A DNA stretch of 64,000 bases from Tubulanus polymorphus (lineage: Eukaryota; Animalia; Nemertea): contig NC_134030.1 in the NCBI RefSeq assembly GCF_964204645.1, forward strand, positions 14,632,110 to 14,696,109. The letters run 5' to 3'. Of the stretch, positions 13,491 through 45,230 are shown piece after piece. The position numbers were made by a program, and so were the translations under genes. Each line of letters begins with the position of its first letter. Within the stretch, counting starts at the first letter, position 1. The notes under the pieces were generated by a model that saw only the letters and a program-made list of their open reading frames with translations, was not told where the DNA came from and did not search any database.

Positions 13491-13512
13491 AATTAATCTT
13501 TTTGTTAAATAA

Positions 13513-14760: not shown

Positions 14761-14793
14761 AATTTTAACTTTAATAAAATATTTATATAATAA

Positions 14794-18976: not shown

Positions 18977-18982
18977 AATAAG

Positions 18983-20699: not shown

Positions 20700-20789
20700 C
20701 TATCTATATATCTATTCTATAAGAGCTTACACTTTTATATTGAATAATCTGTCAATTTAAATGTTATTCATTTACATGAATATTTTAAG

Positions 20790-26608: not shown

Positions 26609-27210
26609 AGTAATAGGGGTAATGGGCTTTCATACCAAAGGTCGAACGGTCGAGCCCATTAAAAAACAAAATATTAAAAGTAATTAAAAAACTATAATAT
26701 ATTTTCATAACCGCGTGCATTTTATATCAAAACTAAATATTTATTCTAAGATATCAATAATATAAAAAGCATATTGTATTAAATCAATTGGTCGCTCCAC
26801 TTCGCTACCGCTCCGCTCCGCGACCAATTGATTTAATTACAATACACAAATTCAAATAATCAAATATATTCAAATGATAATAATTATTCTATTATTCAAC
26901 TGAAATGCACGCGGTTATGAAAATATATTATAGTTTTTTAATTACTTTTAATATATGTTATTAATGAACTCGATCATTAAACCTTTGATATGAAAGCCCA
27001 TTACCCCTATTACTCTTAAAATATTCATATATATATGAATAACATTTAAATCATTGAACTTCTAAAATCAATTTTAATAAAAAATTTAGTATTAAAATGG
27101 AAGCAAATAAATACTACTGCCCAACATGTAATATCGATATAGATAAATCCCAAAAAGCAAGACACAATAAAACTAGAACACATTTAGAGAATAAATTGAA
27201 ACTAGAATAT
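26609..27210 (+). repeat. Left TIR of Polinton B (406-bp palindrome 26609-27014, then promoter and first 38 codons of pPolB)
   Basis: Reverse complement of 44278-44881; by eye the only difference is a TA-repeat length. Confidence 0.93.
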
Positions 27211-30200
27211 AAAGATGATATATTAGAAACTAAATTAGATGAATTAAAGAATGAAAAAGAAGCATACAAATGTGATACATGTAATCAATCATTCAGTGAT
27301 AAAAGATATTATAAAGTACATTTAAAATCTATAAGTCATATTAGAAATAAGAATAATGATATTTTAGGTGAAGATTATTTTGATAATGATAACGATAAGA
27401 AACAGAAGACAATTAAAAGAATAAAAAATAAATTAAACAATAAAAGACCATATATGGAAGATGTAAGAAATTATATTAATTCATTAGATAATAAAAAAGA
27501 TATAGAGATAACCGAAGCATTTATAAGTGATATTGGTCCAGCAGCTATCGAGTTTAAATTTCATAAAAGTAAAACAATAGAAGAAAATAAAAAACATTTA
27601 GAAAATATGAAAGAAATAATAAAAATAATTACAGATGTTGAATATCCTAAAATTAGTATATCAGTTAAAGTAAAGTTTATAAAATCTGAAGATAAACCAA
27701 TATATAATATAAATTCTCATTCACAACATATTATATCTAAACAACATATAGATGATAAATTAGATAAATGTTATAATGAAGTAAAAACTAAAATAGAAGA
27801 GAAATATTTTGAAGGATCTGGTTTAATATTTGATGAGATAATATTTATAACTTTACATGTTTATAACACAAAATATAATAAGTTAACTAAATCAAAACCA
27901 ATTGATGAAAATAATTTATCATATTATAAAGAACCCGATATTGAAGCATCAAGTTATATTAAACTACCATTTAAAACTAATGCTGTAATAAATATACAAA
28001 ATGAAGATGATAAATGTTTTCTATGGGTTATAATAAGTTGTTTACATCCATCAGAAGATATTACACATAGTTTTAGATTAACTCATTATAAACAATTTGA
28101 AAATAATTATAAGATAGATAAGTATCCTGTTAGAATTAAAAACATCCCAAAAATAGAAAGAGATAATAATTTAAAGATAAATGTATTTGATTTAATCAAA
28201 TTACCAAATACAAAAGGTAACAACATAAAACATTATACATTAGAACCTTTATACCTATCAAAAGATTATGATTCAAATGATGTTATAGATATACTATATT
28301 ATGAAAATCATTACATGTGGATTAAACAAATCGATTTATTTTTCAAATCAGAAAATGATCACCATAAAATATATCTATGTAGAAAATGTTTACATAAATT
28401 TAGTAATGAAAGTACATTATTAAATCATAAACAACTATGTGATAATCATGATTATTGTAAATTAAATTTACCAAATGAAAAAGATAAAATATTAGAATTC
28501 AAAAAATATGATTACAAAAATAAAGTACCATTTGTAATATATGGAGATTTTGAATCATTAAATAAAGAATTAACAGATAAAGATAGAAAAGATATATATT
28601 ATAAAAGAAAGTAATTAAATTCTAATGAAAGTGATTATTCAGAAGAACCACCAAAAACAAATACTATTAAAAAGATTCATCAATCAGCTGCAGCTTTCGG
28701 GTTATATATTAAATCTAATTATCCAGAACTAATTAAAAGTGAATATTATAATTATAGAAATGAAAATGTTATCAATCATTTTTGTGACTTATTAATTGAA
28801 TATGAAATAAGATTTAATGAAAAGTTAAATAAAAATATAGAAATTATAATGACAGAAGAAGATAAAGAAGAATTTGAGTTTGCAGATAAATGTTATTATT
28901 GTGAAAAGATATTTAATTATAAAGATAAAAAAGTAAGAGACCATGATCATTTGAATGGAAAGTTTAGAGGCGCTGCACATGAGAATTGTAACTTACAAGC
29001 TAAGAAAATTAACTTTGTACCAGTTATATTTCACAATTTATCGGGGTATGACGCGCATTTATTTATCAAACAGTTATGCCATAAAATAGAAGAAATCAAT
29101 AATGAAATAGAAATATTAAATTCAAATAGATCAAAAGATAAAATACCAACTTATAAATTTAGAATGTTAGCTAAAACATCTGAGAATTATATATCATTCC
29201 AATTTGGGTGTCTAAGATTTATAGATTCATATAGATTTTTAAATAGTTCATTAGATAACTTATCAAAATCATTAGTTGATGATGAATTAAAAATATTAAA
29301 AGAATATTACCCAAATAATGATGATTTCCAATTAATGAGATATAAAGGAGCGATTCCATATTCTTTCTATAAAAATCATAATGATTTTAAAATAACTGAA
29401 TTATTGAAAGAACAATTTTATGATGAATTAAAAAATGAATATGTTAAAGATGAAGTCTATAATAGAACATTGAATATTTGGAATCATTTCAAAATAGAAA
29501 ATCATGGTCAATTAGTAGATTTATATTTAAAATCAGATGTATTATTATTAACCGATATATTCGAAAGGTTTAGAGATGTAAACCTAAAATATTTCAATAT
29601 TGATCCATGTCATTGTTATTCTAGCCCAGGATTAACATGGGATTGTGGATTAAAATTTACAGATATAAAAATGGATTTGTTAACAAATATAGATCAATTA
29701 CTATTATTTGAAAAATCTATAAGAGGAGGTGTTTCAGGTGTATTGGGTGATAGATATTTCAATGTAAATGATAATCCTGGATATAAATTATTATACATAG
29801 ATGCAAATAATCTTTATGGTTGGGCAATGATGGAACCACAACCTTATGGGATGTTTGAAATAACTGAAGTTTTACAAATTGATAAATTTGATTGGAAGAA
29901 AAGAATCCTAGATATTGCAGATGATTCAGATACTGGTTACTTCTTCGTTGTAGATTTAGAATACCCTGAAAATATTAAATTCAAATCTAGAAATCTAGCA
30001 TATTGTCCCGAACATAAAACTGTTAAACATGAAGAATTATCAAATTATCAAAAAAGAATTAAACCCGATAATCATATTCATACTGAAAAGTTAATGGTAA
30101 CTCAAGAAGATAAATATAATTACGTTGTGCATTATAGAATGTTGAAGTTTTATTTGAGACAAGGAATGATATTAAAAAAAGTACATAGATATATTTCATT

Positions 30201-30982
30201 CAGTCAATCTAAATGGTTAGAAAAATATATAGATTTTAATACTACACAGAGAACTAAATCTAAAACTGATTTTGAAAAAGATTTTTTTAAGTTAATGAAT
30301 AATGCGTTCTATGGAAAAACTTGTGAAAACATAAGAAATAGAAATGATATTGAGTTAGTTAGTAATGGTAAAAGGATAAGGCATTTACAATCATATCCTA
30401 AGTTTATAGGTAACAGAATATTTGATGAAAATTTAGCTGCAGTTAAAATGAGGAGAACTTCTATGAAGTTCAATAAACCTATATTTATTGGTTCGACTGT
30501 TTTGGAAATTTCAAAATTATTGATGTATAATTTTTATTATAATGTTTTACAACCCCATTTTGGGGAAAAACACATAGAAATCTTATATTTTGATACAGAT
30601 TCTTACATATTAAAGATAAAAACTGATAACATAACAGATGATTTAAAAACATTAAAACATCATTTTGATTTCAGTAACTATCCTAAAGATCATGAATTGT
30701 TTGAAAGTTGTTGAAAAGAATATTCATTTCAAAGATTACATCAATTGTATATTTAATGAAGAAGTTAGAAAACATAAGATGAAATGTTTAAGATCTGAAG
30801 ATCATGAAATGTTTATTGAAGAAATAGAGAAGATAAGTTTGAATCCATTTGATGATAAAAGATATATTTTAGATGATGGAATCCACACAGTCGCCTATGG
30901 TTGCAATTTAGATGAATATATAAAATTCAAAAGAGAAGAAACAAAAGAAAATGAGATTATGAAAAGGATTCTAGCGTGTTAA
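27097..30982 (+). pseudogene. polB: Protein-primed family B DNA polymerase with N-terminal C2H2 fingers, TP/vOTU-like region and EndoVII-like insertion; in-frame stop at 28612-28614 and a deletion/frameshift at ~30710
   Basis: ExoI VIYGDFES, ExoII FHNLSGYD, ExoIII YLKSDV; Pol A YIDANNLYGWAM, Pol B KLMNNAFYGK, Pol C YFDTDS; INIQNEDDKCFLW...HY (vOTU-like); CYYC...VRDHDHLNGKFRGAAHENCN (EndoVII-like). Confidence 0.93.
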
Positions 30983-31010
30983 TCAATTTCAATAAAAATT
31001 TGTATAATAA

Positions 31011-31352
31011 ATGGAGAGTAAACAAGTACACAGTGAATTCTTAGATAGAATTAAAGATACTTCAAGCGTCAAATCTGTAGATTATAAATTCAAAAAGTTA
31101 ACAGAATTAACAATCCTTAAGAAATATCTAATTACAAATATTGTTACAGTTACTAATAAATATGGAGATAAATTAGTAATTCATTTAGAATATGAAGGAT
31201 TAAAAGGAAATAAATATAAATTCAGAACATATTTACCAGATAGATTTCATAGATTATCAAGTGAAGATTTAGAAGAATTATGTTCTGGAGATTTCTATTT
31301 CGTATACAAAGGTAAGAATGAAAAAGGGCACCATGAAATAGATTTCGAATGA
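31011..31352 (+). CDS. Small beta-rich protein, possible OB-fold ssDNA-binding protein
   Basis: Intact 113-aa ORF directly downstream of polB with pattern KKLTEL...KYG...LP.RF; function is inferred only. Confidence 0.45.
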   Translation: MESKQVHSEFLDRIKDTSSVKSVDYKFKKLTELTILKKYLITNIVTVTNKYGDKLVIHLEYEGLKGNKYKFRTYLPDRFHRLSSEDLEELCSGDFYFVYKGKNEKGHHEIDFE

Positions 31353-31369
31353 GAAAATATGTAAAATAA

Positions 31370-32129
31370 ATGGTGGAATTAAAAGAATACAGAATATTTG
31401 TTGATTCTAGAAAACTTACAAATTATAAATCTCATAATTTATTAGTACAATTAGATAGAGAATTTAAGAATTGTGTAGATTTAAAATTAGTAAATATAAG
31501 TTTATGTAATTCTTTTTACAATGTATCGGATAAGTCTATTGAACATAGAGTCTTTTTAATTCATGATAGAAATAAAAGTAAATGGTTTCATCTTTATCTT
31601 AAACCAGGATTATATAATTTAGAAACATTAGCTCAAGAAAATTAATAGAAGAGCTCGGTTAAAAATGGGTGCATCTGCTGGATTTGGATTAAGACTGATT
31701 AAAAGTGATAGTTCTGATAAAATAAGAATAAAATTAGGTAATGAAGATCAACATCAATTTCTAGTTAAAAAACCCTTAGCTAAAATTTTAGGAATAACCC
31801 CAGATGTAAGGATACGCAATGCTGATGCTACACCAAATATAATGCCTTTTACACGTTTTTGTATTTATTGCAATTTAATCGATCCTACAAAAACATTCGA
31901 AGCAACTAAAGATATAACTTGTAATTCTGGTTTACTAAACATTTTACCATTGAAGAATGTTAAAGAATTTGGAACGCAAATAAATTATAATTTAACAGAA
32001 TGTGATTTCAAACTATGCATTCCTCGTTTTAATAATTTTAGATTAGAAATTAGAAATCATAATGGATACTTAATTGATTTAAATAATTTCCCTGTAATTT
32101 ATGAATTAGTTATAAGATGTAAAGAGTAA
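31370..32129 (+). pseudogene. Minor capsid protein (penton, single jelly-roll), frameshifted near 31640
   Basis: IFVDSR...NSFYNV...PGLYN...IYCNLI...LLNILP...LEIRNHNGYLIDLNN matches the Polinton penton pattern. Confidence 0.75.
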
Positions 32130-32145
32130 TTTTTTCATTATATAA

Positions 32146-32487
32146 ATGAATATAACTGTTGGACCGAGTATATGTTTTGGATTTGATTTTAAACATGGTA
32201 AAGAAATGAGAATTAAACTAAATGATGTAATTACTGATATAAAAAGTAAATCATTTAACAATGCATCAATGATTGATAAAGAAAATTATAATATAGAAAA
32301 AGTAATTGATTTAATTAAATCACCTTTAGAATATTATGAATTAAATGAAGATGGAATTATTGATGATATCAAAAACATATTATCCAAAATATATGATAAT
32401 CATAAAACTAGTAATGAAATAAATGTTGAAATAATCATAAATAAGTTAACGAAATATTTTGAAGATAGTAATTTTTTTGATAAATAA
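32146..32487 (+). CDS. Polinton hypothetical protein
   Basis: Intact ORF with TAAATG start within the gene array. Confidence 0.55.
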   Translation: MNITVGPSICFGFDFKHGKEMRIKLNDVITDIKSKSFNNASMIDKENYNIEKVIDLIKSPLEYYELNEDGIIDDIKNILSKIYDNHKTSNEINVEIIINKLTKYFEDSNFFDK

Positions 32488-32709
32488 ATGAGTGATAATA
32501 AGTGGATAATAACTGGATTATATAATGGCGCATTACTATCAGTTGGAACTGTTGGTTATTCAATGGTATTAAAAAAAGTATTCAAAATGGGAAGTGTTAA
32601 TGTTGATAGATTTGATATAAATGATATTTTAAAGTTAACATTAGCAGTTACTTTATCTAATTTAACTATTGATTATTTGGAAAAACAAAAATATATTCCT
32701 CCCATATAA
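32488..32709 (+). CDS. Small hydrophobic Polinton protein
   Basis: Two hydrophobic helices; stop-start coupled to the previous ORF. Confidence 0.6.
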   Translation: MSDNKWIITGLYNGALLSVGTVGYSMVLKKVFKMGSVNVDRFDINDILKLTLAVTLSNLTIDYLEKQKYIPPI

Positions 32710-32733
32710 ATGCATAATTGTTTTGCTAAATAA

Positions 32734-33156
32734 ATGGCTTCTGCAATTATAACTATTATAGGATCGGCAATTGTTAACGCTTTAGCATTTACTGGTGGTG
32801 GTTATTTATTTAAACATATTGATAAAAATAGTTCATTAGGAGAACAAAGAAGACATAACTTAGCGTTAGAGAAATACAATAAAGCTGCAGAAGAATATAG
32901 AGAAAAGAGACAAAACTATATGGATTACATCAATAAAGAATTATATAATCAGAAGATTTCACACAGAGATTTTCAATCAGTTGATGATGCAATGAGTTTA
33001 TATAACGGAGTAACAAATAAAGAAAAATTACATCTATACAAACCTAAATTATCAGATTATTATACCCCAAGTAAAGAACAACAGAAATATGAAATAATAT
33101 GGATTTTAGGTGGAACTGTTATTGTTATATTTGTTGCTTATAAGTTTACTAATTAG
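32734..33156 (+). CDS. Polinton membrane protein (hydrophobic N-terminus, coiled coil, C-terminal TM)
   Basis: MASAIITIIGSAIVNALAFTGGGYLF; EQRRHNLALEKY; C-terminal IIWILGGTVIVIFVAY. Confidence 0.65.
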   Translation: MASAIITIIGSAIVNALAFTGGGYLFKHIDKNSSLGEQRRHNLALEKYNKAAEEYREKRQNYMDYINKELYNQKISHRDFQSVDDAMSLYNGVTNKEKLHLYKPKLSDYYTPSKEQQKYEIIWILGGTVIVIFVAYKFTN

Positions 33157-33175
33157 TAATTTTTATTCTAAATAA

Positions 33176-33610
33176 ATGGAAGATAAAGTTGATAGTATTG
33201 ATATTATTCCTCATGATATAAATAAAACTAAATTAAAAACATATTTAGAAAAACAAATATTAGAATTTGAAAGTGACTTGAAGATAAAAAAGAAAAAATA
33301 TTTAAAAAGTAAAATTATATATTATTTGATTATAAGTGGTTCGGTTACAATTAGTTCTGTAATAACATTTTTAGCAATATTCAGTCCATTAACACCTTTA
33401 GCTATATCAATTGGTGTGTTAGGATTAAGTTCAAGTGTTTTAACTGGTATAAGTTCAAAATTAAATATAAAAAGTAATAAAGAAAAAATTAAAACTAATA
33501 TAAAAGAAATTAATAAATTAAAGAATACACTAGATTATATAATAAGTTTAAATGGTCATATAACAGTTGAAGAACAAGATAAATTATTAAAAGAATTAAT
33601 AAATTATTAA
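33176..33610 (+). CDS. Two-TM coiled-coil Polinton protein
   Basis: Two central hydrophobic helices flanked by Lys-rich coils. Confidence 0.65.
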   Translation: MEDKVDSIDIIPHDINKTKLKTYLEKQILEFESDLKIKKKKYLKSKIIYYLIISGSVTISSVITFLAIFSPLTPLAISIGVLGLSSSVLTGISSKLNIKSNKEKIKTNIKEINKLKNTLDYIISLNGHITVEEQDKLLKELINY

Positions 33611-33627
33611 TTTTTTTAATTATATAA

Positions 33628-35016
33628 ATGGTAGATAGTTTTCCAAAAGCTTTCCAATATAATAAATCAATTAAATATAATATTCCAGCAATAGATTTTA
33701 ATAAAGATATTACATATAGAAATGAAGTTTTAGATTCATTAATTGATTTATATATTTATGTTACTGAAACTAATAATTTTAATGCAAAGATGGAAAATAT
33801 ATTTCATGTATATTTAATTAATTTTAAAAAATTGAAAGATGAAAAACAATGGTTATTAAAATCTAATATGAAGTATTGGCAGAATCAATTAAATTTTGCT
33901 GTTTATTGTGCAACAACAGGTTGTGGAATTAGTTGGAATGATCATTTGAATAATTCTAAATATAAATTAATTCAAAGTTTATTTAGATTTCATACATACT
34001 TTCAAATAAGAATAATATTAAATGAATTAGAGTGCGCTTTACCAGGATCTAGGTATTTTAAAGAATTAGATAATAATATTAATTTATCTAAGTTTTATAA
34101 AATTTGCAATGAATTTAATATAGATATAAATAATTCTGATTTTAGAACAAAAATTGGAACAATAAGATCACTTCCTTGCCCTAGAAAGATTGCAGAATAT
34201 TGTGCACTTCCCATACCATCTAATAGTTTTTATAATATCTATAATAATAAATTAGGTTATGGTAAAATAGAAACAAAGGATTTAGAAACATTAAATTTCA
34301 ATAAATTACCGAAATTTTATGATAATTTAAAACAAGAAAACAATAATGGTTGGGTATATTTTATTTTAGAAAATAGTGAAGGTTTTACTAAATCAGGTAT
34401 AGAAAGAATAAATCAATCTATTAGAACTTATTTGATTTGTATTCTAGGTGCGCAAGTTGAAACAAGATCACCGATAATTGGAAATTTGAATACATCATTC
34501 GATACACAAAAACAATTTAAAGTTTTATTTGAAGATTCCATACATAATGATAAAAATAGATCGATTCCAGAAAACATTATAAGATATCAAAATTATTTAG
34601 ATAAATCTCATGTAAGACTTAATTATTGTATAGGCCCTAATCTATTAATTATTTCTAATGATTTAGTATTAAAGATGGGAAATATAATTGGTTATAATAA
34701 TCTAATTAAAACTGCAACAATAAATAATTCATTTGGATTGAATGATATAAATAAAAAGATTATTACTGCTCCAAAATTAATGGAAGGTGAAAAAAATAAA
34801 AAACATATTCAATCAACTGAAACTAAAACTAATAATATTAAATTGGTTAATGATTCTAAAATAAAAGATTACAATACATCAGAAAATAATAGAACTGATA
34901 TTATTCAACATGATATAATTAAAACTGATGATGATAATAAATCCCATGAAAATACTAAATTAGCTATAACTTGTATAGGAATTGTAATCGGAGGAATATT
35001 ATATTTTAAATTTTAA
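33628..35016 (+). CDS. Polinton hypothetical protein (462 aa) with C-terminal TM anchor
   Basis: Long intact ORF; QNQLNFAVYCATTGCGIS...FRFHTYFQIR; C-terminal AITCIGIVIGGILYF. Confidence 0.7.
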   Translation: MVDSFPKAFQYNKSIKYNIPAIDFNKDITYRNEVLDSLIDLYIYVTETNNFNAKMENIFHVYLINFKKLKDEKQWLLKSNMKYWQNQLNFAVYCATTGCGISWNDHLNNSKYKLIQSLFRFHTYFQIRIILNELECALPGSRYFKELDNNINLSKFYKICNEFNIDINNSDFRTKIGTIRSLPCPRKIAEYCALPIPSNSFYNIYNNKLGYGKIETKDLETLNFNKLPKFYDNLKQENNNGWVYFILENSEGFTKSGIERINQSIRTYLICILGAQVETRSPIIGNLNTSFDTQKQFKVLFEDSIHNDKNRSIPENIIRYQNYLDKSHVRLNYCIGPNLLIISNDLVLKMGNIIGYNNLIKTATINNSFGLNDINKKIITAPKLMEGEKNKKHIQSTETKTNNIKLVNDSKIKDYNTSENNRTDIIQHDIIKTDDDNKSHENTKLAITCIGIVIGGILYFKF

Positions 35017-35032
35017 TTTTTTTATTATGTAA

Positions 35033-36640
35033 ATGGATGTAGAAGGTGGAGAAGATATTCCATTGGATGACATGGGAAATAATAATGAAGGATATATTGA
35101 TAATGATTATAATGATGCAGGCGCTAATATTTATAATGATGATGAATCAGCATATAATACTAATTTAGCAGATAGTGGTTCTAAAGCCCCATCAACAGAT
35201 GAATTTGATAGAAGAACTAGATCGAGAATACCTACTGAAAATTTAGACCCAGGTTTATCAAAAGAAGATATAGAAAATAGTAAATTTATATATAAGTTCC
35301 AACCTGTATTTGAAAGATCTGGATATAATATAAATGACAGAGGGGCCAGACTTTTAGTAGAAAATTTAAAATCTTTAGATAATGAATATTATTATCATTT
35401 GAAAGATGATTATTATATTAATATCACTAATCAAAGTACAAAACTAAGTAAAATATTAGCAGAATCAACTTTGCTTAAGTTAGAACCAGATAGAATTAAG
35501 AGAATAAGTAATAGTAATGAAATAACTGATGTTACACAAGAAGAAAGAAATAATAATATAAGAGTATTTAGTGAAAGAATTGATAACTTATTTAAAATAA
35601 TCGATAATAATTTAGAAACAGAAATGGAAGAGAATAGAGATCGATTAGATAAATTAAGATCTTCAACACCCGAAACATCTAGAAGAGATATTCAACAAAT
35701 TGATAATGATTCAAATCAATTACAATTAGGAAAACATTTTGATAGCATGTTAGATGCAATTCATTCATTTGACGAAGAGATGAATAGTATTTTAGATACA
35801 CCCGGTACTGAAACTGGAATAAATCGAATACAATCTTTACTAGAAAAAGGATTATTTGATTTAACTGATGATGAATTAGAAGCATTTCCTGAACAAGCAC
35901 GTAGAGAAATTAAAGGTATGCAAGAATCAGCTGATAAAATTGCGCATGAAAAAAGTAAAAGAGATATTAAAATTAGATTTTTAGAAAAAGATAGAACTGA
36001 TAAAAATAAAAAAATAGAACAATTAAAATTAGATAGAGATAATAAAGTTATTGAAGAAATTGAATTTAAAAAAAGAAATGCATATTTAGAAAAAGAAATT
36101 GATGATTTAGAATATAACATAGAATTACAAAAAGAAGAAATTAAATTATTGTTCAAATCATATGATTATAATATTAATAGATTAAAAGTTATTTTTAAAG
36201 ATTTGTTGATTAAACCAAATTCTGAAATATCATTAAAAGACAGAATAAGATTATTATTTAAATTAGAAGGAATAACAATTCTTTCAATTCTAACAGCTGT
36301 AACTATGTTATTTACAACAATTGGTTTAGCAATATCAAATGCTTTAAAATCTACTCCTACTCCCACTCCCAATAAACCAGATAAACCTCCAGGTAATAAT
36401 TCTATACAAGATAAAGTTAAGGATGGTTTAAAGAAATTAGCAAAATATTTATGGGAACTATCAAAGAAATCTGCTGCAGCTTTACCAGGAGTTATTGCAT
36501 GCTTCAATTGTTGGTTTTATATTGAAATCTGCAGGAAACATTATTAACTTTGCTGCTGAACATATTATTTTATTTTTAATTACAATTGTAAGTGCTATTA
36601 TTTTTGGTTTAGTAAATATGATATCAAAAAATATCAAGTA
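35033..36640 (+). pseudogene. Coiled-coil protein with C-terminal membrane/amphipathic helices, frameshifted near 36500
   Basis: Acidic N-terminus, long coiled coil, TM ITILSILTAVTMLFTTIGLAI; a 4-nt duplication (GCATGCTT) shifts the frame relative to copy A. Confidence 0.7.
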
Positions 36641-36712
36641 AACATGATATCAAAAAATATCAAGTAAACCATGATATCAAAAAATAAATAATTAATTTTT
36701 TTTGTTAAATAA

Positions 36713-37960
36713 ATGAGTGGGAGTTATATAAGTCCTTCGAAGAATCATAGAATATCTAATGCTATTAAAGCAGAAAGATCACATCATATAATTACTCATA
36801 ACCCTTCAAATATTAATCCCGATGAAACTTTATACGTTAGAATTCCTAGATTAACACAAAATACTTTTTATGTTCCAAATAGTATTTATTTATCAGCCGA
36901 TATAAAAGTAATCGGTAATAATAATAATTATGTTGTTGATAATGTTGGAAGATATTTGATTAAAAAGTTAACAATAAAGATTGGTCCAGGAACAGTTTTC
37001 TCATTAGATGATTATAATTTATTTTCACATTATAAAGATTTATGGTTAACTAAAGAAAATAGAAATAATATGATATTTCAAGGAATTCAATCAGAAAACC
37101 AAAATAAATTAAGATCAGAAGCTAATAGCGCAATATTAACAAATGATGTAGATAAATTGATAAAAAGTATATATGGAAGCAAATATAAAATTCCATTAGA
37201 CTTTGAATTGATAAATAATAATGCACCTTTATATAAATACGCAATTCAAGAAGATATTATATTTGAGATAACATTTGCTCCTGTAAATGAAATTGTATTA
37301 TCTAGCGTTAATAAAGATATGAGTTATAAATTATCGAATATATGTTTAGAATATGATACAGTAACTGATGAAAATATTTCAAGTATAATTCAAACTCAAT
37401 ACAATCAAGGGTTTTCATTATTATATGATTATATTGATAAATTTAAAACTGTAACTATTAATGCAAATGATGAAATAATTAATGAGAATATTAACTTCCC
37501 AAGAAGATCTATTAAAGGTATATTAATATTTTTTACCATTGGAACGTATACTAATGGCGCAATAAATGTTGATAATTATTATAATCCTGAAATAACAAAA
37601 GTAGAAATAACTATCGAAGGTATAGCGAATAAAATATTTTGTCAAGGAATGAGAATGATAGATCAATGGGTAGAAATTAAAAAACATTTTATGAATGAAA
37701 AAGTAAAATCATCTGAAAATTGTAACATTAATCAAATTGATTATTATGCCGGTAATAAATATGCATTATGGTTAGATTTTAGAACAACTGAAGATAATTC
37801 ATTTCATGGTTCTGGAAAAAAACTACAGAACACTAAAGATGGAATACAATTATTCATGACAAAGAAAAAGGGAATCAAAAATTTTAAAATGCACATTTAT
37901 ATTATATCTGACGCACAATTAAATATTGTAAATTCACAATTAGATAGTGTTATGTATTAA
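36713..37960 (+). CDS. Major capsid protein (double jelly-roll, hexon-like)
   Basis: Intact 415-aa beta-rich ORF, highly conserved between the copies; size and position fit a Polinton MCP. Confidence 0.8.
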   Translation: MSGSYISPSKNHRISNAIKAERSHHIITHNPSNINPDETLYVRIPRLTQNTFYVPNSIYLSADIKVIGNNNNYVVDNVGRYLIKKLTIKIGPGTVFSLDDYNLFSHYKDLWLTKENRNNMIFQGIQSENQNKLRSEANSAILTNDVDKLIKSIYGSKYKIPLDFELINNNAPLYKYAIQEDIIFEITFAPVNEIVLSSVNKDMSYKLSNICLEYDTVTDENISSIIQTQYNQGFSLLYDYIDKFKTVTINANDEIINENINFPRRSIKGILIFFTIGTYTNGAINVDNYYNPEITKVEITIEGIANKIFCQGMRMIDQWVEIKKHFMNEKVKSSENCNINQIDYYAGNKYALWLDFRTTEDNSFHGSGKKLQNTKDGIQLFMTKKKGIKNFKMHIYIISDAQLNIVNSQLDSVMY

Positions 37961-37992
37961 AATTTTAACTTTAATAAAAATATATATAATAA

Positions 37993-38962
37993 ATGGAAGG
38001 AGGTAAAGTATATGAAAGAATCAAAGCTGATAAAGAAATCAATGATAATTTGTATTATGTAATACCTTATAAAAGAATAAATGAATATATTGGAACATTT
38101 TTATTAAATGAATTAAATCAATACAAAGAATATTTAATTGAACGTAATAATAATAAAAGTGGTGTTGTTAATAATAGTGTAATTGATAATAATGTAATAC
38201 CTACTACATCTGTAATACCTACTACATCTGTAATACCTACTACTACATCTGTAATACCTACTACATCTGTAATACCTACTACATCAAATAATGTAATACC
38301 TACTACATCTGTAATACCCTCTACATCAAATAATGTAATACCTTCTACATCTAATAATAAAATAATATTAGATGTTAGTGAAAATAGAAATTATTGTGGT
38401 TATTATAATGGTGAATTTTCAAACGCTCCATCAAATTGGAATAAACATATGAATACAAATTCACATATTACTAATGTTATAGAACGTGTTGGTTTATGAG
38501 AATTTATAGAACACCCATTTAGATATGTTACAAAATTTGTTTCAAATAAAAAAGTAAATGGTAAAGAATTATATGAAGATTTTTTATTAACAACACCTAA
38601 TAAAGATGAATTAGATTTAACCGATGCTAATGAAATATTAGGATCAAATATTGTAAATGAAATATTAGGATCAAACACTAATAAAGATGATAATGAAAAT
38701 GATGCCATACGCCCACATGGTGATAAAGTTACAGATAAGCATATTGATAATAAAGATTCTATAAAACTTAAAGTAGAAAATAATGATAAATTTGATTGGA
38801 TCAATAAGCTTAACAATAAAACAACTATTGATGATTCGGTAAAAAAGGTGAAAAAAAATTATAAAGATGTTGATGTAGATTCGGTAGAGCAGTTAAATAT
38901 GTTGTTAGGGCCGTCTGATAGTGAAAGTGATTCAGAAATTAATTATCTAACACTCGAATAAT
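37993..38962 (+). pseudogene. Hypothetical protein with VIPTTS mucin-like repeats; premature TGA at 38497-38499
   Basis: Homolog of 14794-15678; 18/24-bp tandem repeats at ~38190-38355. Confidence 0.6.
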
Positions 38963-39017
38963 AAAGGTTGAAAATTGTATAAAATAATAGTAAATAAAAA
39001 AAGGGTTTTAATTATTT

Positions 39018-39172
39018 AAGGTATCTAATAGGGTATCAGGTATAAGGGTATCAGGTATTAGGGTATCTAATGGGGTATTAGAGGTATTAGGGTATCTAAT
39101 AGGGTATCAGGTATTAGGGTATCAGGTATAAGGGTATCTAATGGGGTATTAGGTATAAGGGTATCTAATACA
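39018..39172. repeat. GGGTATC(TAATA/AGGTATTA) short tandem repeats at the convergence of the two transcription units (also ~15985-16060)
   Basis: Repeats are directly visible between the end of the plus-strand array and the ATPase stop. Confidence 0.8.
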
Positions 39173-39187
39173 TAGGTATACAAATAG

Positions 39188-39799
39188 TTATTTTATAAAT
39201 TTATATTCATATGGAAATTGTAATCTCATAAGTAATTTGGAACCTTTATTATTCTTTAATTTATTCATATATTCATCATGTAATTCAGTAGGTATAATTT
39301 GATTTTCTTCCAATGATTGTTGCATAGATTTTCTATCTTTGTTATAAAATAAAACTAGAAATCTTATATTCTCCCTAAAATCTTTCACAATTGAATTATA
39401 TTTCTGATTTAAAACCCATGTTGTTATCCCAAAATGTCTACCAGAGAAAGCTAAATAACATAACTCACTTTCTCTAATTTTAGAATCATGTAAATTTGCG
39501 CAATCGTCGATAATAAATAATGTATTAGATCCTTTATAAATATCTAATGCAATTTTTATACAATTATCTAAATTATCTTTTACTGTTTTAGGATCTAATA
39601 TAATAAACTTTTTTATCTTAACTATATCTCTATTATATGTTTTATTCATTTCATAAGTAGGACAGAATAATATTATATTACCAAAATGATTCTTATAAAT
39701 AGTTTCTAACAAATCTAATATGAAATGTGTTTTACCACAATTGGTTACACCAGTAACTAACATATTATGAGGTTCAAATATAAATAAATCTTTATTCAT
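39188..39799 (-). CDS. A32/FtsK-like DNA packaging ATPase
   Basis: GVTNCGKT, FIIDD and GRH motifs; intact. Confidence 0.92.
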   Translation of the reverse strand: MNKDLFIFEPHNMLVTGVTNCGKTHFILDLLETIYKNHFGNIILFCPTYEMNKTYNRDIVKIKKFIILDPKTVKDNLDNCIKIALDIYKGSNTLFIIDDCANLHDSKIRESELCYLAFSGRHFGITTWVLNQKYNSIVKDFRENIRFLVLFYNKDRKSMQQSLEENQIIPTELHDEYMNKLKNNKGSKLLMRLQFPYEYKFIK

Positions 39800-40877
39800 T
39801 TATTCTTTTAATTTTACTAGATAAAATCCATTCATTAAATTTATCATCATATCCTTTATATTTCACCAGAGAATACTTTTTTCCTTTAAGAGTTTTTGTT
39901 TTCAATACCTTTTCTATTTTGTATTCTATTTCATCTGGATTTGGTACTAATGATAATTCTTGTTCATAAAAATAACCTAATATTTCTTCATCTTTTAAAT
40001 CAAACAATTTATAAACAAATGGTTTAGTTAATATTATCTTTTTAATTTTAAATATTTCTTCAGTAAAATTTGGGGTATAACCTTTATAAAATGTTTTTCG
40101 ATATTTAGAAATTCTAACATGTTGTCCTATTTTAAATTTAGGTTCTCCAAAATCATGTGTAACAAATGCTCCATATAAATTATTCCAAACTATTTCTGAA
40201 TTTTCTTCTTTTCTAGCTTGTATAGGTTTCATATTTATAGAACTATGTTTAGAATTATTATAACCTTTAACTAAATCATCTAATACATTGATATATTTAT
40301 ATGTTTCATTAGCGGTGAAATATTTCCACATTCTAGTTTTCAATGTTTTATTAAATCTTTCTATAACAGATGCTTTTTTATCTGAATGTGTTGAAAAATA
40401 TTCTACATCGTTATCAGTTAATAGTTTTTTAAAATGTTTGTTATAAAATTCTTTACCTTCATCAAATTGTATTTTATCTGGAATAGCTTCTTTAAATATT
40501 AATTTGAAAGAATTTGTAACTTCTATACCGGTTTTATTTTTAATCGGGATACTCCATGCGTATCTACTGAATATATCTATAACATTTAGTATCCAAAAAT
40601 ATCCTTTGTTATATTCTTCTAAGTTCTTCATGTCAATTAAATCTGCTTGCCATTGTTGATCGATATATGAAACCATTACTTTTCTTGTTAAATATTTTTT
40701 ATCCATCTTTTTATGAATTTGATATGTTGGTTGATTTTGTAACCATGATTTTAATTCACTATATTTTATATTGCTATTATCAGATTTAATTTTATCCCAT
40801 AATTCCGAAACACTTGAATATGAAACTTCGCTTTCTGGGTTGTAATATAACGCTCTTAAATATTGTTCTTTTTTCAT
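39792..40877 (-). CDS. Polinton RVE integrase with C-terminal chromodomain
   Basis: DDE core motifs and chromo-like C-terminus; intact. Confidence 0.93.
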   Translation of the reverse strand: MKKEQYLRALYYNPESEVSYSSVSELWDKIKSDNSNIKYSELKSWLQNQPTYQIHKKMDKKYLTRKVMVSYIDQQWQADLIDMKNLEEYNKGYFWILNVIDIFSRYAWSIPIKNKTGIEVTNSFKLIFKEAIPDKIQFDEGKEFYNKHFKKLLTDNDVEYFSTHSDKKASVIERFNKTLKTRMWKYFTANETYKYINVLDDLVKGYNNSKHSSINMKPIQARKEENSEIVWNNLYGAFVTHDFGEPKFKIGQHVRISKYRKTFYKGYTPNFTEEIFKIKKIILTKPFVYKLFDLKDEEILGYFYEQELSLVPNPDEIEYKIEKVLKTKTLKGKKYSLVKYKGYDDKFNEWILSSKIKRINE

Positions 40878-40883
40878 CTTATT

Positions 40884-41279
40884 TTAATCCATTAATAATA
40901 ATCTTGGTTTATTTTCAATGACTTTATCATTTGACTTATTTTCTGGTATGATAGGTTTATTGTCATTGGAATCATCTTTATCATTAGATTTGAATTTATG
41001 TTTATATATTACACCGGAGAATATAATAATTGTGATTAACCCAATTGTTATATATAAGTAATTATTTCTTCCACTATTAGAAGAATCAGATGGATTATTA
41101 TTTGAATTAATACCACCGTGTGGGTGCCGTACGGCATCATCAGATAATTTCTGTGATTCATTTATATCAGTTAATTTCTTTTTCTTAGCTTTTTTTAATT
41201 CTGATGATCTTTTACCTAATTCTCTTGCCCATTTAATTTGTTTCTCGGATCTAGCCTTTTTCTTAACGCTATCACTCAT
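40884..41279 (-). CDS. Small basic single-pass membrane protein
   Basis: Homolog of 18617-18976. Confidence 0.7.
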   Translation of the reverse strand: MSDSVKKKARSEKQIKWARELGKRSSELKKAKKKKLTDINESQKLSDDAVRHPHGGINSNNNPSDSSNSGRNNYLYITIGLITIIIFSGVIYKHKFKSNDKDDSNDNKPIIPENKSNDKVIENKPRLLLMD

Positions 41280-41856
41280 TTATTTTAGTTAATTTTTGTT
41301 CTGATTCATTTTCTGTTTCGACGTTTGGTTGTAGTACATCTGTTTCGTTCTTACCTGATTTATATTCCATAGGTTTGATGTTCGAAAATGTAATGACACC
41401 AGTAGAAATTAATGTCATAACCGATCCTAATTGAAATGAAGCATATCCAACCCATTTTTGTAATTCAGTCATAACTAAATAGTCATTTTTCAAATCATTA
41501 TATAATTTATTTTCATCATCAATTGGTATTAACTGGTTACATAACTTAGAATAACATTTTACAATACCATCTGAAATAGAATCCTTTATTTTAGATAATC
41601 TTGCCTCTTCATAAATCTTAAAATATTTTATTACTTTTTCTTTATTCATATTATCTAATTCTTGAAAAGTTATTGTTTTACCAATAAACTCTTTAGTTTT
41701 TCCACTCGCAATCAATAGTTCTAGATGATGCTTACAATATAAATAGTATTCATAATCTATAGAATTAGAAACAACTGTATCTTTATTATCACTTATACCC
41801 AAATCATCTAATGTTTTTTCAATATCAATACTATTCTTATTCGATTTCTTAGACAT
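41272..41856 (-). CDS. Polinton hypothetical protein
   Basis: Homolog of 18022-18624. Confidence 0.7.
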   Translation of the reverse strand: MSKKSNKNSIDIEKTLDDLGISDNKDTVVSNSIDYEYYLYCKHHLELLIASGKTKEFIGKTITFQELDNMNKEKVIKYFKIYEEARLSKIKDSISDGIVKCYSKLCNQLIPIDDENKLYNDLKNDYLVMTELQKWVGYASFQLGSVMTLISTGVITFSNIKPMEYKSGKNETDVLQPNVETENESEQKLTKINE

Positions 41857-43394
41857 TTATATTAGAGAAATTTAATAAGAATAGTATTATAAGTATTCTT
41901 CAAATGATACTAGATAGTTAAAGTTAAAGAACTCTAGTATTGACTACTGATACTAGCTATTTGAATTTAAAGAATATCTATTTGAATCTATTCAAAATAT
42001 AAAGTATTCTCTTTTGAAAAGAAAGTATTAAAAATATAATAGAATTCACTAGCTAGTTGAAGTTATTGTTTTTTTATTATATTTTATTTGAATTAGGATT
42101 TAATATCTCACTACTATTGTCTATCTATAGGAGCGGTAACTATAACTGTCCAGATAAGTCATTTCGGATTCTCGATAATAAATCCTAAAACTGAAAATAA
42201 ATTCAAAGAAACGACTGGTGGAAATATTATTTCATAAACACATATATTTATTATGTAAATTTTAGCGATCGATAATAGAACAATGGAGAACAATAGAAAT
42301 GTGGTCCAATCGGACCGGTTATTGCGCAATACACAGTTATATTTTTATTCTGTAAACTACAACATTCACACATAGAAATGTAACCAATCAATATTGAGCA
42401 GCTGTTTCAGTCAACAACGATCAATAATAGAACAATGGAGAACAATAGAAATGCGGTCCAATCGGACCGGTTATTGCGCAATACTTAGTTAACAGTAAAC
42501 AATACAATATTAAAACAGATATATACAATCGAGATTACATTTTTGATATCTATATTACAAAGACTTTCAGTGTTATAATCTATAATTTTGTCTAGAATTC
42601 TTTAATTACTGGATTGTTTCCAATCATTTCTTCAATTTCTGGTAAATATCTTACTACTTCACTAAATGTTAATCCTAATATTTTGAATTTTTCATATTTT
42701 ATTAATCTACCTACTCTTCTCAGTTTTGAAAGAAAACCGGCACTGATATCTCCACTCATTTTCTTAGTTTTCGATTATTTGAGTCCCAACAGCAATTTAA
42801 GTCGCGTTGCTGGTAATTTTGGTAATTGTAGTTCGCGCGGTAATTGTTTATTATGTATTACATCACTCAGAGTTTTCACCATTTCTTGATGATAGTCCAA
42901 ATGTTCTTATAATTTTGTGAAGTTTGTTCGTCAATTACGAGAGTTTCATCCTCCATTTCTATTGATTCCTGAGTTTCACTATCCAGTAGCAATCGTTCCT
43001 CATCCGTTAGTTGGCTTAGAATTTCTGGTTGATCTTTGTGTTCCATTTTAATCTAAAAGATATCGTGAAAATGAATTACTGTACTTAAATATGTTTAAAG
43101 GTTTCCCTACTTCATAATAACTACAAAAAACGGTACTTACATTTAGATTTAGAACTGTAAACTGTGTTTTGAGAGAGAATATCCAATACGTACTATGTAT
43201 GTGAAAGTTGATTTCTAACTGCCGACGTGGCGCACGTTCGACCAAACTAATTACTTCTGCACAGATGTTCTTTATGATGAAGTTAATTAACTCTTTAGAA
43301 TTGAAAACAAGATATATTTGGCAACATATGTTTTAGTAGTAAGCAAAAGCTATGTATTATATACATACAAAGCTCAAATAGAATTGCCAGCTTT

Positions 43395-44060
43395 CTAACC
43401 ACTAATCAAAACCTCAGAATGCGGTTGATTCTGTGAAATACTATTCCATAATTCAACAAATGTCTTTGCTTTATCCAGTTGATCTAAATATAACTGTAAA
43501 TCTAGTTTATTGGATTTAATAATGTTTTCCTTCTTTTCTAAAGGTCTTAGATTCTTCCAATTCCAAATAAGTTTTTTATTGTATTCATCGTTCATGTTAA
43601 ATTTAGAAATCGGAAACACATGATCAATATGAAAGTATTCACCATAATTATCTATATTCATTTTATCATCGAATTGATATATTATCCATGATTTGAGAAA
43701 TTCATCTGAACAACCCAATAAATTAGATAATGTTTCTGAATGTGTTTCTTTGTTGAATAATTGTGTTAATCTAGACCGTAAACATTGTTTTAATCTAAAA
43801 TTAAGATCTGTTTGATATCTTTTTCTCATATATTCTGCCATATAATAATTATAATGTTCTATATTATCTTCTCGGTATTGTTTGGTGTATAGTTTAAAAC
43901 AAGTTTTACAGCAATATTGAAAACCATCTTTGCTAATCTTACGCTTACTAAATTCTGTTAATGATTTATCTAATTCACATTTAGAACACTTCTTGTAGTA
44001 TATGTTTATAACGCCAGTGTTATTTGTAATATTGATAATTTGTGGTTGTTCTGGTTCCAT
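43395..44060 (-). CDS. HNH endonuclease-like protein with Cys zinc finger
   Basis: Homolog of 16224-16877; HIDHVFP...NLRPL...N motif. Confidence 0.7.
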   Translation of the reverse strand: MEPEQPQIINITNNTGVINIYYKKCSKCELDKSLTEFSKRKISKDGFQYCCKTCFKLYTKQYREDNIEHYNYYMAEYMRKRYQTDLNFRLKQCLRSRLTQLFNKETHSETLSNLLGCSDEFLKSWIIYQFDDKMNIDNYGEYFHIDHVFPISKFNMNDEYNKKLIWNWKNLRPLEKKENIIKSNKLDLQLYLDQLDKAKTFVELWNSISQNQPHSEVLISG

Positions 44061-44139
44061 TTATTATACGTATTTTTTTACTAAATTGGTTAATAATTTT
44101 AGAATCCTCTTCCATTTCTTCGACCAACGTCATCCTTTT

Positions 44140-44391
44140 TCATTCCTCGCTGCTTTTGATAAGTTGTTTCGATTCCTTGATATCAAATTCCTCAACGTAT
44201 TGTTCATTATTTGGATCATTATTCCATAATTCAATAAATTTCTTTCCCTTTGTTAACTGTTCTGAATATAACTGTAAATATTCTAGTTTCAATTTATTCT
44301 CTAAATGTGTTCTAGTTTTATTGTGTCTTGCTTTTTGGGATTTATCTATATCGATATTACATGTTGGGCAGTAGTATTTATTTGCTTCCAT
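44140..44391 (-). CDS. Chimeric ORF: pPolB N-terminal C2H2 finger fused to an HNH-ORF-like C-terminal tail
   Basis: First 38 aa are identical to pPolB; the remainder LQLYSEQLTKGKKFIELWN resembles LQLYLDQLDKAKTFVELWN. Confidence 0.55.
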   Translation of the reverse strand: MEANKYYCPTCNIDIDKSQKARHNKTRTHLENKLKLEYLQLYSEQLTKGKKFIELWNNDPNNEQYVEEFDIKESKQLIKSSEE

Positions 44392-44881
44392 TTTAATACT
44401 AAATTTTTTATTAAAATTGATTTTAGAAGTTCAATGATTTAAATGTTATTCATATATATATATGAATATTTTAAGAGTAATAGGGGTAATGGGCTTTCAT
44501 ATCAAAGGTTTAATGATCGAGTTCATTAATAACATATATTAAAAGTAATTAAAAAACTATAATATATTTTCATAACCGCGTGCATTTCAGTTGAATAATA
44601 GAATAATTATTATCATTTGAATATATTTGATTATTTGAATTTGTGTATTGTAATTAAATCAATTGGTCGCGGAGCGGAGCGGTAGCGAAGTGGAGCGACC
44701 AATTGATTTAATACAATATGCTTTTTATATTATTGATATCTTAGAATAAATATTTAGTTTTGATATAAAATGCACGCGGTTATGAAAATATATTATAGTT
44801 TTTTAATTACTTTTAATATTTTGTTTTTTAATGGGCTCGACCGTTCGACCTTTGGTATGAAAGCCCATTACCCCTATTACT
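44278..44881 (-). repeat. Right TIR of Polinton B (palindrome 44476-44881)
   Basis: Reverse complement of 26609-27210. Confidence 0.93.
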
Positions 44882-45230
44882 GCTAACCATAAGGCTTAAG
44901 AATGGTATTCAGACATTGGACTTGCCTCTACTAACATTGTCTGGTTGCGAAACGAGATGTCGTTTTGAGCCTCCAGCTCTCACTACAGTCGCGTTACGAG
45001 TCATTTGTGGAGTCGCCCGCTTGAACTTAACCTGGCAGGCTAAGCAACTGACTTGTTCGCAGGGAACGATGTACAATCTGCCGACTGCTTGCTCGGTGCC
45101 CCTACGGGTTAGTCTCTTCACAATGAGACAGCTCGTATCGGTTCCGAGTAAGGTTGTGCTTGTCGCGGTGTATCGTTCTTTTAGTACTGAATTACGAGAA
45201 GCGACTCAGCTGACAGTTTCGTCAGTGTAG
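44882..45230 (+). pseudogene. env: C-terminal continuation of the Gypsy env ORF after the Polinton B insertion
   Basis: Removing the element and one TSD copy restores the frame: GKYPVRLT|IRLKNGIQTLDLPLL...TVSSV*. Confidence 0.85.

Follow-up and report, generated by a model that had tools for sequence, protein, structure and literature searches.

The window, i.e. the whole stretch of 64,000 nucleotides of Tubulanus polymorphus DNA analyzed here, contains a Maverick/Polinton of 18,273 bp at 26609-44881 with the outer bases AG...CT, at exactly the coordinates given in an earlier note made from the sequence alone. Like other Maverick/Polintons (Polintoviricetes), the 18-kb element encodes pPolB, an rve integrase and a double jelly-roll capsid protein with an A32 ATPase, and has long TIRs and a 6-bp target-site duplication (TSD). 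An empty-site allele, in which the joint skips 18,279 bp, was recovered 40 times among the reads of run X7 and once among the contigs of run X1. The insertion is polymorphic, and the recurrence of its exact ends in many insertions indicates a multi-copy family. The two TIRs align with 0 mismatches and 2 gap columns over 604, and the first 406 nt of each give a branched hairpin of -117 kcal/mol (z=-24.6 against 40 dinucleotide shuffles). The ends, the TSD GCTAAC, the empty site and these hairpins bear out the palindrome-ended element of the earlier note, and its high AT content was also correctly called (GC 0.243, i.e. 76% AT, against 0.33-0.48 in the flanks outside a second copy described below). 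The palindromes probably rebuild a double-stranded terminus or form a cruciform during replication. The terminal hairpin has the same orientation in 3/3 ends within the window, a sample of three ends only for flip/flop, and a vaccinia concatemer-resolution pattern is absent from the TIR. The features of the ends and the non-coding part of the element are:

26603..26608, no strand, left copy of the target-site duplication (6 bp, GCTAAC), supported by the empty site
44882..44887, no strand, right copy of the target-site duplication (6 bp, GCTAAC), supported by the empty site
26609..27210, plus strand, left TIR of 602 bp, holding the pPolB promoter and the first 38 pPolB codons
44278..44881, minus strand, right TIR of 604 bp, with its hairpin at 44476-44881
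26609..27014, no strand, left branched terminal palindrome of 406 nt, three-armed, its terminal 22 nt repeated inverted at the inner end
39016..39187, no strand, tandem repeat array between converging genes, with a unit resembling the terminal sequence of the element

The genes, from left to right, are listed below; the start is TAAATG unless given otherwise.

27097..30982, plus strand, pPolB with zinc fingers and an EndoVII-like domain, start TAAAATG, broken here
31011..31352, plus strand, 113-aa protein, weak lead to phi29-type single-strand binding proteins (score 0.85)
31370..32129, plus strand, conserved gene of ~250 aa, candidate minor capsid protein, split in the window copy
32146..32487, plus strand, second 113-aa protein
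32488..32709, plus strand, 73-aa protein, conserved family-wide
32734..33156, plus strand, 140-aa protein, family-wide, two hydrophobic segments
33176..33610, plus strand, 144-aa two-helix membrane protein, weak SLATT match (E=0.004)
33628..35016, plus strand, 462-aa protein, family-wide, hydrophobic C-terminal tail
35033..36629, plus strand, ~500-aa protein, family-wide, hydrophobic segment, frame change near 36510 here
36713..37960, plus strand, major capsid protein, double jelly-roll, frame open
37993..38799, plus strand, clade-specific gene, interrupted by a stop at 38497-38499
39188..39799, minus strand, A32-type packaging ATPase (Pox_A32, E=3.8e-11)
39792..40877, minus strand, rve integrase with chromodomain (rve, E=7.9e-9), no TAAATG, TAAAA 5-9 nt upstream of the ATG
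40884..41279, minus strand, 131-aa protein, one hydrophobic segment
41272..41856, minus strand, 194-aa protein, conserved family-wide
42592..43046, minus strand, broken gene in three pieces, start TAAAATG
43395..44060, minus strand, HNH endonuclease of a family common to giant viruses and phages

pPolB matches DNA_pol_B_2 (Pfam, E=5.5e-16) and, as had been claimed, contains an EndoVII-like domain (Endonuclease_7, E=7e-5, narrowly under the curated cut-off), which is annotated in 35 of the 120 pPolB relatives listed. The window copy of this gene is damaged by an in-frame stop at 28612-28614 and by a deletion with a frame change near 30705. The capsid protein gave a model with pLDDT 87 whose top structural match is the PBCV-1 capsid (E=6e-17); PBCV-1 and iridovirus capsids rank above that of mavirus (rank 46). 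The product of 31370..32129 belongs to a conserved family of ~230-250 aa that returned no match in a PDB profile search, and going by the usual Polinton gene sets it is probably the minor capsid protein (penton). PDB profile searches with three conserved protein families matched nothing. The 462-aa protein was considered as a hidden protease; its model is mainly helical (pLDDT 67) without a known fold match, which neither marks a new fold nor excludes a protease, and a search of the ESM Atlas gave no usable match for it. Gene 42592-43046 was suspected to be an RNA polymerase subunit, for which neither Pfam nor PDB gave support.

The earlier note had argued for a helper virus from several independent traits that occur together in one element. 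A simple hydropathy scan found five proteins with hydrophobic segments, in agreement with the membrane proteins it listed, and its statement that adenain is missing holds, as a custom profile detected it neither in the window nor in any of 80 capsid-related loci (best E 1.2). Of 22 pPolB-related contigs, the profile, whose seed was checked against ASFV S273R, recognises adenain in 12, among them 6 non-seeds; Pfam was dropped as a protease test because it missed the adenain of a distant Polinton, L141. The argument itself fails, since protease loss, EndoVII and membrane proteins are all family-wide and their co-occurrence is therefore no pointer to a helper. The membrane-protein families also occur in relatives without TAAATG, and all 80 capsid-related loci are protease-less, including two TIR-bounded elements without TAAATG. 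Protease loss is an older family trait that lies outside the mechanism proposed below, and it is not new either, because a protease is found in just 74% of Polintons (Krupovic 2014, PMC4028283). The description of the HNH gene as giant-virus-type is correct in part: its motif is conserved and its closest relatives on viral contigs lie beside NCLDV capsid/VLTF3 genes, but others occur in phages.

The distinctive trait of the element is its start signal. TAAATG stands at 14 of 16 element genes, the number of starts counted in the earlier note, against 56 of 720 ATGs overall (7.8%; binomial p=3e-14); the exact hexamer is missing at the integrase and pPolB starts. A T lies 12 nt upstream of the ATG in 14/14 start TAAATGs versus 16/42 internal ones in the element, and in 48/51 versus 30/84 in the clade, with an A-rich peak at -18/-17. 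Read from these letters, the putative promoter is bipartite, T-N8-TAAATG, like poxvirus late/intermediate promoters. The hexamer heads 46 of 51 genes in the capsid clade, as defined by a quick tree, versus 1 of 218 in other relatives; the AT-rich ones among the latter have it at 1 of 40 (Fisher p=5e-19, with clade genes that are not independent), and it is kept at a GC content of 0.40-0.44 (3/4 in both L007 and L008). A purine occupies -3 at 7 of 67 starts versus 162 of 218 in relatives. TAAATG is clade-restricted, independent of GC content and anti-Kozak. The same signal is found in L037 (9/9) and in L141 (6/6), which combines a branched palindrome and the same promoter with a retained adenain, so that the two-part signal is seen in at least two separate lineages.

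According to the available text on vaccinia, late promoters have TAAATG with a conserved T ten nt upstream, and intermediate promoters have TAAA preceded, at 15-19 nt, by an AT-rich tract and then a T (PMC11980589). Taking the first A as +1, as in the available part of PMC12917281, places the T of the element at -10, the vaccinia T being located within one base only. T-N8-TAAATG matches these late/intermediate descriptions as far as the excerpts go, in a comparison with published text and not with a helper sequence. The likeness comprises the TAAATG over the start codon, the upstream T, an A/T tract at about -19 to -14 and a G/A after the ATG (available text of PMC11980589, PMC12917281 and PMC5294985). 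Unlike poxviruses, the element yielded neither an RNA polymerase nor transcription factors, and its genes have no early-type promoters: Pfam, which had missed the adenain of L141 and left several proteins unannotated, detected no RNA polymerase or VLTF3 family in the element or the scanned clade ORFs, and the gene starts of the element have no poxvirus early-type motif.

We consider it somewhat more probable than not (roughly 55%) that the element is a provirus whose genes are transcribed once a cytoplasmic large DNA virus infects the same cell; this virus would be pox-like and not necessarily a poxvirus. The signal is common to the closest relatives and missing in distant ones, so that transcription of the element by helper enzymes is likely; the helper need not be a poxvirus, as non-pox giant-virus contigs, chosen by pattern search, also show TAAATG on part of their genes (6/10, 5/17 and 6/21). 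The provirus would stay quiet until the helper infects the cell; the post-replicative machinery of the helper would then initiate within AAA and add a poly(A) leader. With this leader the T at -3 would give way to an A, and the translation context would be good again. For copying, packaging and re-integration the element would rely on its own pPolB, capsid and integrase. Of the earlier proposal of pox-like promoters and a pox/asfar-like helper, the promoter part is supported by the bipartite, clade-restricted signal; helper dependence goes a step beyond it, neither a helper nor a transcript having been found, and an asfarvirus fits less well because ASFV-like late promoters have TATATA. To reach its many chromosomal sites the element must enter the nucleus, which counts against the co-infection model.

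Could TAAATG simply result from AT richness, from stop-start coupling, from an overlapping AATAAA poly(A) signal or from trans-splice acceptors? The AT content of the element speaks for this, as do the 30 of 67 starts that read AATAAATG; the other 37 differ, the AT-rich relatives lack the hexamer almost throughout, its TAA is the upstream stop in only 3 of 51 tandem cases (within the element solely at 32488..32709), divergent genes carry it too (12/14), AG lies within 12 nt at only 8 of 61 starts, and the T at -12 is left unexplained. AATAAA frequencies in coding strands do not discriminate (O/E 0.98 in TAAATG loci, 0.86 in relatives, not significant). Neither AT bias and Kozak context nor coupling to an upstream stop or overlap with a poly(A) signal accounts for TAAATG, and the start-context counts and the T at -12 largely refute a by-product, which we find scarcely credible. 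It is highly improbable, too, that the promoters are left over from an earlier helper link in a family that is now transposon only or dying. The window copy has TIRs without mismatches and yet at least five broken genes, which suits such a history, and so does a second copy, truncated and rearranged; the earlier note missed both the damage and this copy:

12468..21199, plus strand, left-truncated second copy, ~91% identity (84-94% by segment)

The HNH-to-ATPase block of the second copy is inverted, its single hairpin end lies at 20755-21199, and 6 of the 7 starts checked have TAAATG. Against decay stand relatives at 81-84% identity with intact polymerases of 1319-1365 aa, and the conservation of the signal across capsids of just 51-76% identity, since such a motif would erode without selection.

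An autonomous nuclear Polinton, whose compact promoter is read by host RNA polymerase II, maybe with an element-encoded factor, and resembles that of poxviruses by convergence, would be in keeping with the many chromosomal copies, exact ends and polymorphic insertion, with the element's own polymerase, capsid, ATPase and chromodomain integrase, and with the ordinary A-rich Kozak starts of most relatives that have the same gene set. Some unannotated protein could be a transcription factor, and the loci scanned contained no helper. However, initiation inside TAAA would leave almost no 5' leader, and upstream initiation would put a pyrimidine at -3 in 60 of 67 genes. The two-part signal in separate lineages and the lack of TAAATG in L027, the single relative with a VLTF3-like gene, also argue against autonomy, and we regard it as unlikely. 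The polymerase might instead belong to a resident partner, for example an endogenous giant virus or another element of the cytoplasm (the arrangement of yeast pGKL1/pGKL2), and not to an incoming lytic virus. pGKL1/pGKL2 are not known to have a capsid or an integrase. In the available description they are linear and AT-rich like the element, with TIRs, terminal proteins and TAAAN initiators that are read by their own pox-related polymerase with slippage poly(A) leaders; unlike the element, pGKL2 encodes that polymerase, and there is an early-type upstream motif (PMC6211774). As neither the element nor the scanned clade ORFs yielded a polymerase subunit, a resident partner seems improbable to us.

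The search for the helper of the co-infection model covered several routes. None of 46 HNH-related viral loci is dominated by TAAATG (best 5/13 and 2/3), the dNK of L003 led to 1 locus with TAAATG at 1/16, and a promoter-pattern scan gave 21 loci, none of them, from the ORF starts inspected, a Polinton of the TAAATG clade (best 6/10). Capsid searches of viral contigs found no relative; distant copies, without TAAATG, occur in three bacterial/archaeal MAG contigs.

Mavirus-type virophages integrate by an rve integrase, persist as proviruses in protist hosts and use a CroV-type motif. The element differs from virophages proper (Virophaviricetes) in that it is protease-less and its capsid model is nearer to PBCV-1/iridovirus than to mavirus, and its lack of adenain sets it apart from adintoviruses as defined by Starrett 2021 and from group 1 Polintons. 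It probably belongs to the variable group 2 Maverick-Polintons, as placed by the available description and not by the authors' profiles; that text has a helicase-type gene instead of pPolB in this group, as in L016, a capsid-related relative of the element (Bellas and Sommaruga 2026, 10.64898/2026.06.19.733378). As a precedent for a poxvirus link, Barth et al. 2024 (PMC11296320) describe PLVs from the occlusion bodies of entomopoxviruses. In the available text these are likewise small and capsid-coding, and one relative sits in an animal chromosome, but they are ~12 kb long, all encode a cysteine protease, and no rve integrase is described. Their link is co-occurrence in occlusion bodies, whereas that of the element is promoters only, and the word 'promoter' is absent from the main text and supplement in the form available (PMC11296320). 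Virophage promoters are described, in the accessible part of 10.64898/2026.07.28.741278, as resembling the giant-virus late motif of the helper, and some Halocafeteria virophage/PLV subtypes, mostly non-pPolB elements, as having 52-nt palindromes at the TIR tips. Terminal palindromes are thus already published for other virophages/PLVs; unlike in the mavirus and Halocafeteria types, the palindrome here is 406 nt long, branched and on a pPolB element. The Polinton type, the absence of a protease and terminal palindromes are known, and what sets the element apart from the Maverick/Polintons so far described is the two-part TAAATG signal on nearly all genes together with whole-end branched palindromes on a pPolB element.

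No virions of animal Maverick/Polintons have been observed so far. The promoter signature sets one clade apart from otherwise similar relatives and so offers a direct test of helper-dependent transcription without virus isolation. With it, helper-dependent Polintons could also be screened for cheaply, and their hosts are predicted to have large DNA viruses not seen so far. If our reading is true, the provirophage life style known from protists would extend to an animal host, an identity to which the flanking DNA and the nearest named relatives point as well. One may speculate, tentatively and at somewhat less than even odds, that integrated animal Polintons are true virophages of pox-like viruses, that at least two lineages independently rewired nearly all genes to the post-replicative promoter of the helper and carry branched palindromes, and that these promoters are a fingerprint of unsequenced large DNA viruses.

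In favour of the co-infection model, T5NT is depleted in the coding strands of TAAATG loci (O/E 0.35); against it, other pPolB contigs are depleted as well (0.64) and the window only weakly so (0.60, z=-1.6). Also against it, the split of upstream tracts into A-rich and T-rich ones follows gene function no more than loosely (2.6 A / 2.9 T for the capsid, over 14 starts).

The provirus in this stretch represents an integrating, capsid-coding family of Maverick/Polinton elements with a two-part, poxvirus-like start signal specific to one clade, namely the window copy and the fetched loci L001-L013. The features are as follows.

26609-44881: Polinton element, 18,273 bp, GC 0.243, starts with AG and ends with CT
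Both sides of 26609-44881: GCTAAC directly flanking the element
About 12468-21199: second copy, truncated

The genes identified include a protein-primed family B DNA polymerase (pPolB) with an EndoVII-like domain, an A32 ATPase and an rve integrase with a chromodomain, and the capsid model is a double jelly-roll (pLDDT 87) whose best match is PBCV-1 (E=6e-17). The named matches, which are distant (bivalve capsid, 38%; insect polymerase, 40%), and the repeat-rich flanks suggest an animal host. The copy at 26609-44881 is broken in pPolB, the penton-like gene, a gene of ~500 aa, the gene at 37993 and that at 42592-43046; full-length polymerases (1319-1365 aa) occur among relatives, at 81-84% identity. 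Clade member L003 carries a deoxynucleoside kinase gene with a TAAATG start (10340-10981, E=1.7e-31), and, of two relatives that lack TAAATG, L027 has a VLTF3-like gene (5082-5579, E=3.6e-5) and L016 a helicase-type gene where pPolB would stand (9967-13596). Precomputed domains in pPolB relatives include PF14890 (proteins P0146 and P0170) and PF14528 (also in P0146), which we take to be intein and LAGLIDADG families. A poxvirus-type RNA polymerase subunit was looked for in the element and in the scanned clade ORFs, and none turned up.

The earlier note had reported TAAATG starts on 14 genes, and this held: 14 of the 16 real genes have one, against 56 of 720 ATGs overall, and the remaining two have TAAA within nine bases. 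The capsid and ATPase phylogenies that it had proposed group the window with L001-L013 at a support of 99 (50 capsid rows from the best 80 of 153 capsid-related loci, a quick method with SH-aLRT only, 31 loci with short capsid ORFs excluded), with which the seven ATPase rows agree (support 95). Among the same 80 loci, TAAATG occurs at 46/51 homologous clade genes and at 1/218 in other relatives, with L014, L025, L063 and L037 excluded from both groups; a looser grouping gives 58/66 versus 1/219, although L037 is assigned there by its motif. AT-rich relatives outside the clade have it at 1 of 40 starts (best 80 of 153 loci), and clade loci with a GC of 0.40-0.44 retain it. A second part lies upstream, as a T 12 nt before the ATG accompanies 14/14 start TAAATGs versus 16/42 internal TAAATGs of the element, and 48/51 versus 30/84 across the clade; an A-rich peak sits at -18/-17. 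The start signal, TAAATG plus upstream T, is real. Since related genes are not independent, p-values for the motif overstate the evidence, and it is the contrast between clades that matters.

Simple explanations do not account for this pattern. Stop-start coupling was rejected because, of 51 tandem cases, just 3 have a TAA that ends the gene upstream, and because the motif also heads 12 of 14 ORFs in divergent positions; the rarity of an upstream AG (8/61) speaks against a trans-splice acceptor. No more than 30 of 67 starts have the sequence AATAAATG, which also counts against such explanations. A purine at -3 is found at 7/67 starts versus 162/218 in relatives (best 80 of 153 loci), so that the motif offers a poor context for translation unless mRNAs start inside the AAA and gain A residues. 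Poly(A) leaders are described as arising by slippage on AAA both for vaccinia and for the pGKL elements of yeast (PMC6211774). In vaccinia, late promoters are reported to carry a TAAATG that overlaps the start codon, the tenth nucleotide upstream being a conserved T; intermediate promoters are reported to carry TAAA and, 15-19 nt upstream, an AT-rich tract with a T after it (PMC11980589). Counting the first A of the motif as +1 (PMC12917281), the element's T lies at -10, or at the ninth base from the motif's own T, so the match to the published vaccinia description is within one base.

We consider it somewhat better than an even bet (about 0.55) that the element is transcribed by the cytoplasmic polymerase of a co-infecting large DNA virus, after which replication, packaging and re-integration would be carried out by its own products. 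The pox-like side of the helper proposed in the earlier note gains from the promoter likeness, whereas an asfarvirus fits less well since the ASFV-like late motif is reported as TATATA (PMC11788076). Giant-virus-type contigs among 21 pattern-selected loci have TAAATG on some ORFs (L170, 6/10; L160, 5/17; L163, 6/21), so the helper need not be a poxvirus. Against the helper reading, no helper virus was found among viral loci sharing the HNH family or among the pattern-selected loci, none of the runs listed as RNA contains the element, no early-type promoters were found in the element, the AATAAA result is uninformative and the T5NT result only partly specific. Its chief competitor is an autonomous nuclear element whose promoter came to resemble the poxvirus type by convergence; we regard this as unlikely. 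Upstream tracts are A-rich in pPolB, ATPase and three other families, T-rich in several membrane/structural families and mixed A/T in the capsid gene, so that a two-class promoter cascade is only suggested.

The element is a Polinton that likely functions like an integrating virophage, although it falls outside the virophages proper; its group assignment could change with the capsid profiles of a recent framework (Bellas and Sommaruga 2026, 10.64898/2026.06.19.733378). The word "promoter" is absent from the accessible main text of that preprint, of the egovirus preprint and of the coral polintovirus paper (PMC11131425), and from the accessible text and supplement of the entomopoxvirus polinton-like virus (PLV) paper (Barth et al. 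2024, PMC11296320). Polinton, promoter and TAAATG together retrieved only a Guarani virophage report, in a coverage outside which most subscription journals lie.

Other traits that the earlier note had taken as signs of a helper fared less well. Pfam was rejected as a protease test as it missed the adenain (cysteine protease) of the contig L141, and we therefore built a custom profile, whose seed matched ASFV S273R (E=1e-4). With it, adenain shows up in 12 of 22 pPolB-related contigs and is found neither in the window nor in any capsid-related locus (best E 1.2; best 80 of 153, most of them partial and 11 reaching 10 kb). Adenain is thus indeed missing, but L020 and L033, which are bounded on either side by terminal inverted repeats (TIRs) and do not have TAAATG, also lack it, so that its loss belongs to the family as a whole; in L141, TAAATG and adenain occur together. 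A protease is reported in 74% of Polintons (Krupovic 2014, PMC4028283). Among the matches listed, 35 of 120 polymerases have an EndoVII annotation, as do L020 and L031, HNH insertions in pPolB are already published (PMC10748475), and the giant-virus-type HNH family is common to giant viruses and phages; neither trait points to a helper. Nor do the membrane proteins, since five conserved families, of which three have hydrophobic members in the window, are present in 19-29 non-TAAATG loci (best 80 of 153), and membrane-active and SLATT proteins are reported for this virus group (PMC8502044; 10.64898/2026.10.13.758929).

The motif recurs outside the clade. L037, a long branch beside rows without TAAATG, has it on 9/9 homologous genes, which may reflect a separate gain or retention. 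L141 (1-9034), distant from the element in ATPase and pPolB trees, has TAAATG on 6/6 ORFs, with T at -12 in four; among the remaining 21 pPolB-related viral contigs, such starts number 0-2 per contig. In L141, adenain is fused to integrase (2740-4251), and a branched palindrome of ~200 nt lies between divergent genes at about 4650-4850.

At each end, the outermost 406 nt fold as a long stem that bears three arms (z=-24.6). Across 161 paired positions compared between the two copies, 144 are unchanged, nine changed on one side and four on both sides, all four of which keep pairing; the arms have thus been co-corrected, by selection or by copying of one arm onto the other. Clade hairpins were examined at the window's three ends, where their orientation is identical, with no sign of flip/flop isomers; the ends of L020 and L033 have only short internal hairpins. 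Palindromic ends, one of the traits listed in the earlier note, have a published counterpart in the TIR-tip palindromes of Halocafeteria virophages and PLVs (10.64898/2026.07.28.741278). Most likely, the displaced strand end would fold on its neighbour and so rebuild a duplex terminus or cruciform; self-priming is possible. Palindromes also lie just 3' of the ATPase gene in L001 (3787-3822), L002 (3143-3178), L005 (3183-3255) and L003 (9082-9359), between converging genes in three of these four clade members, and are possibly 3'-end signals.

An empty site exists, as 26602 is joined to 44882 in 40 raw reads of sequencing run X7 and one contig of run X1. Loose read ends in X7 fall at exactly 26609 (442) and 44881 (924) with mixed flanks (agreement 0.35), which indicates a family inserted at many sites. 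The TIRs (26609-27210 and 44278-44881) differ by no substitutions and two gap columns in 604. This near-identity alongside at least five broken genes suggests movement in trans of a template that was defective already, or else homogenisation of the ends by assembly. In the second copy, the HNH-to-ATPase block is inverted relative to 39172-44474, with one breakpoint at the hairpin's inner end and the other at a tandem repeat array. Each of the two copies adjoins or interrupts one and the same decayed retrotransposon of Gypsy type (21200-26608 and beyond 44887), whose features include a chromodomain integrase and an env-like ORF of 599 aa (24531-26330) for which Pfam gave no match. Over 26000-45500, the element-to-flank depth is ~4-8 in X7 raw reads and, as summed contig depth, which is no copy number, ~300-400 in X1; the excess could fit episomal amplification, and equally enrichment or a population difference. 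At 42275-42925, the summed contig depth in X1 is about ten times below that of the rest of the element.
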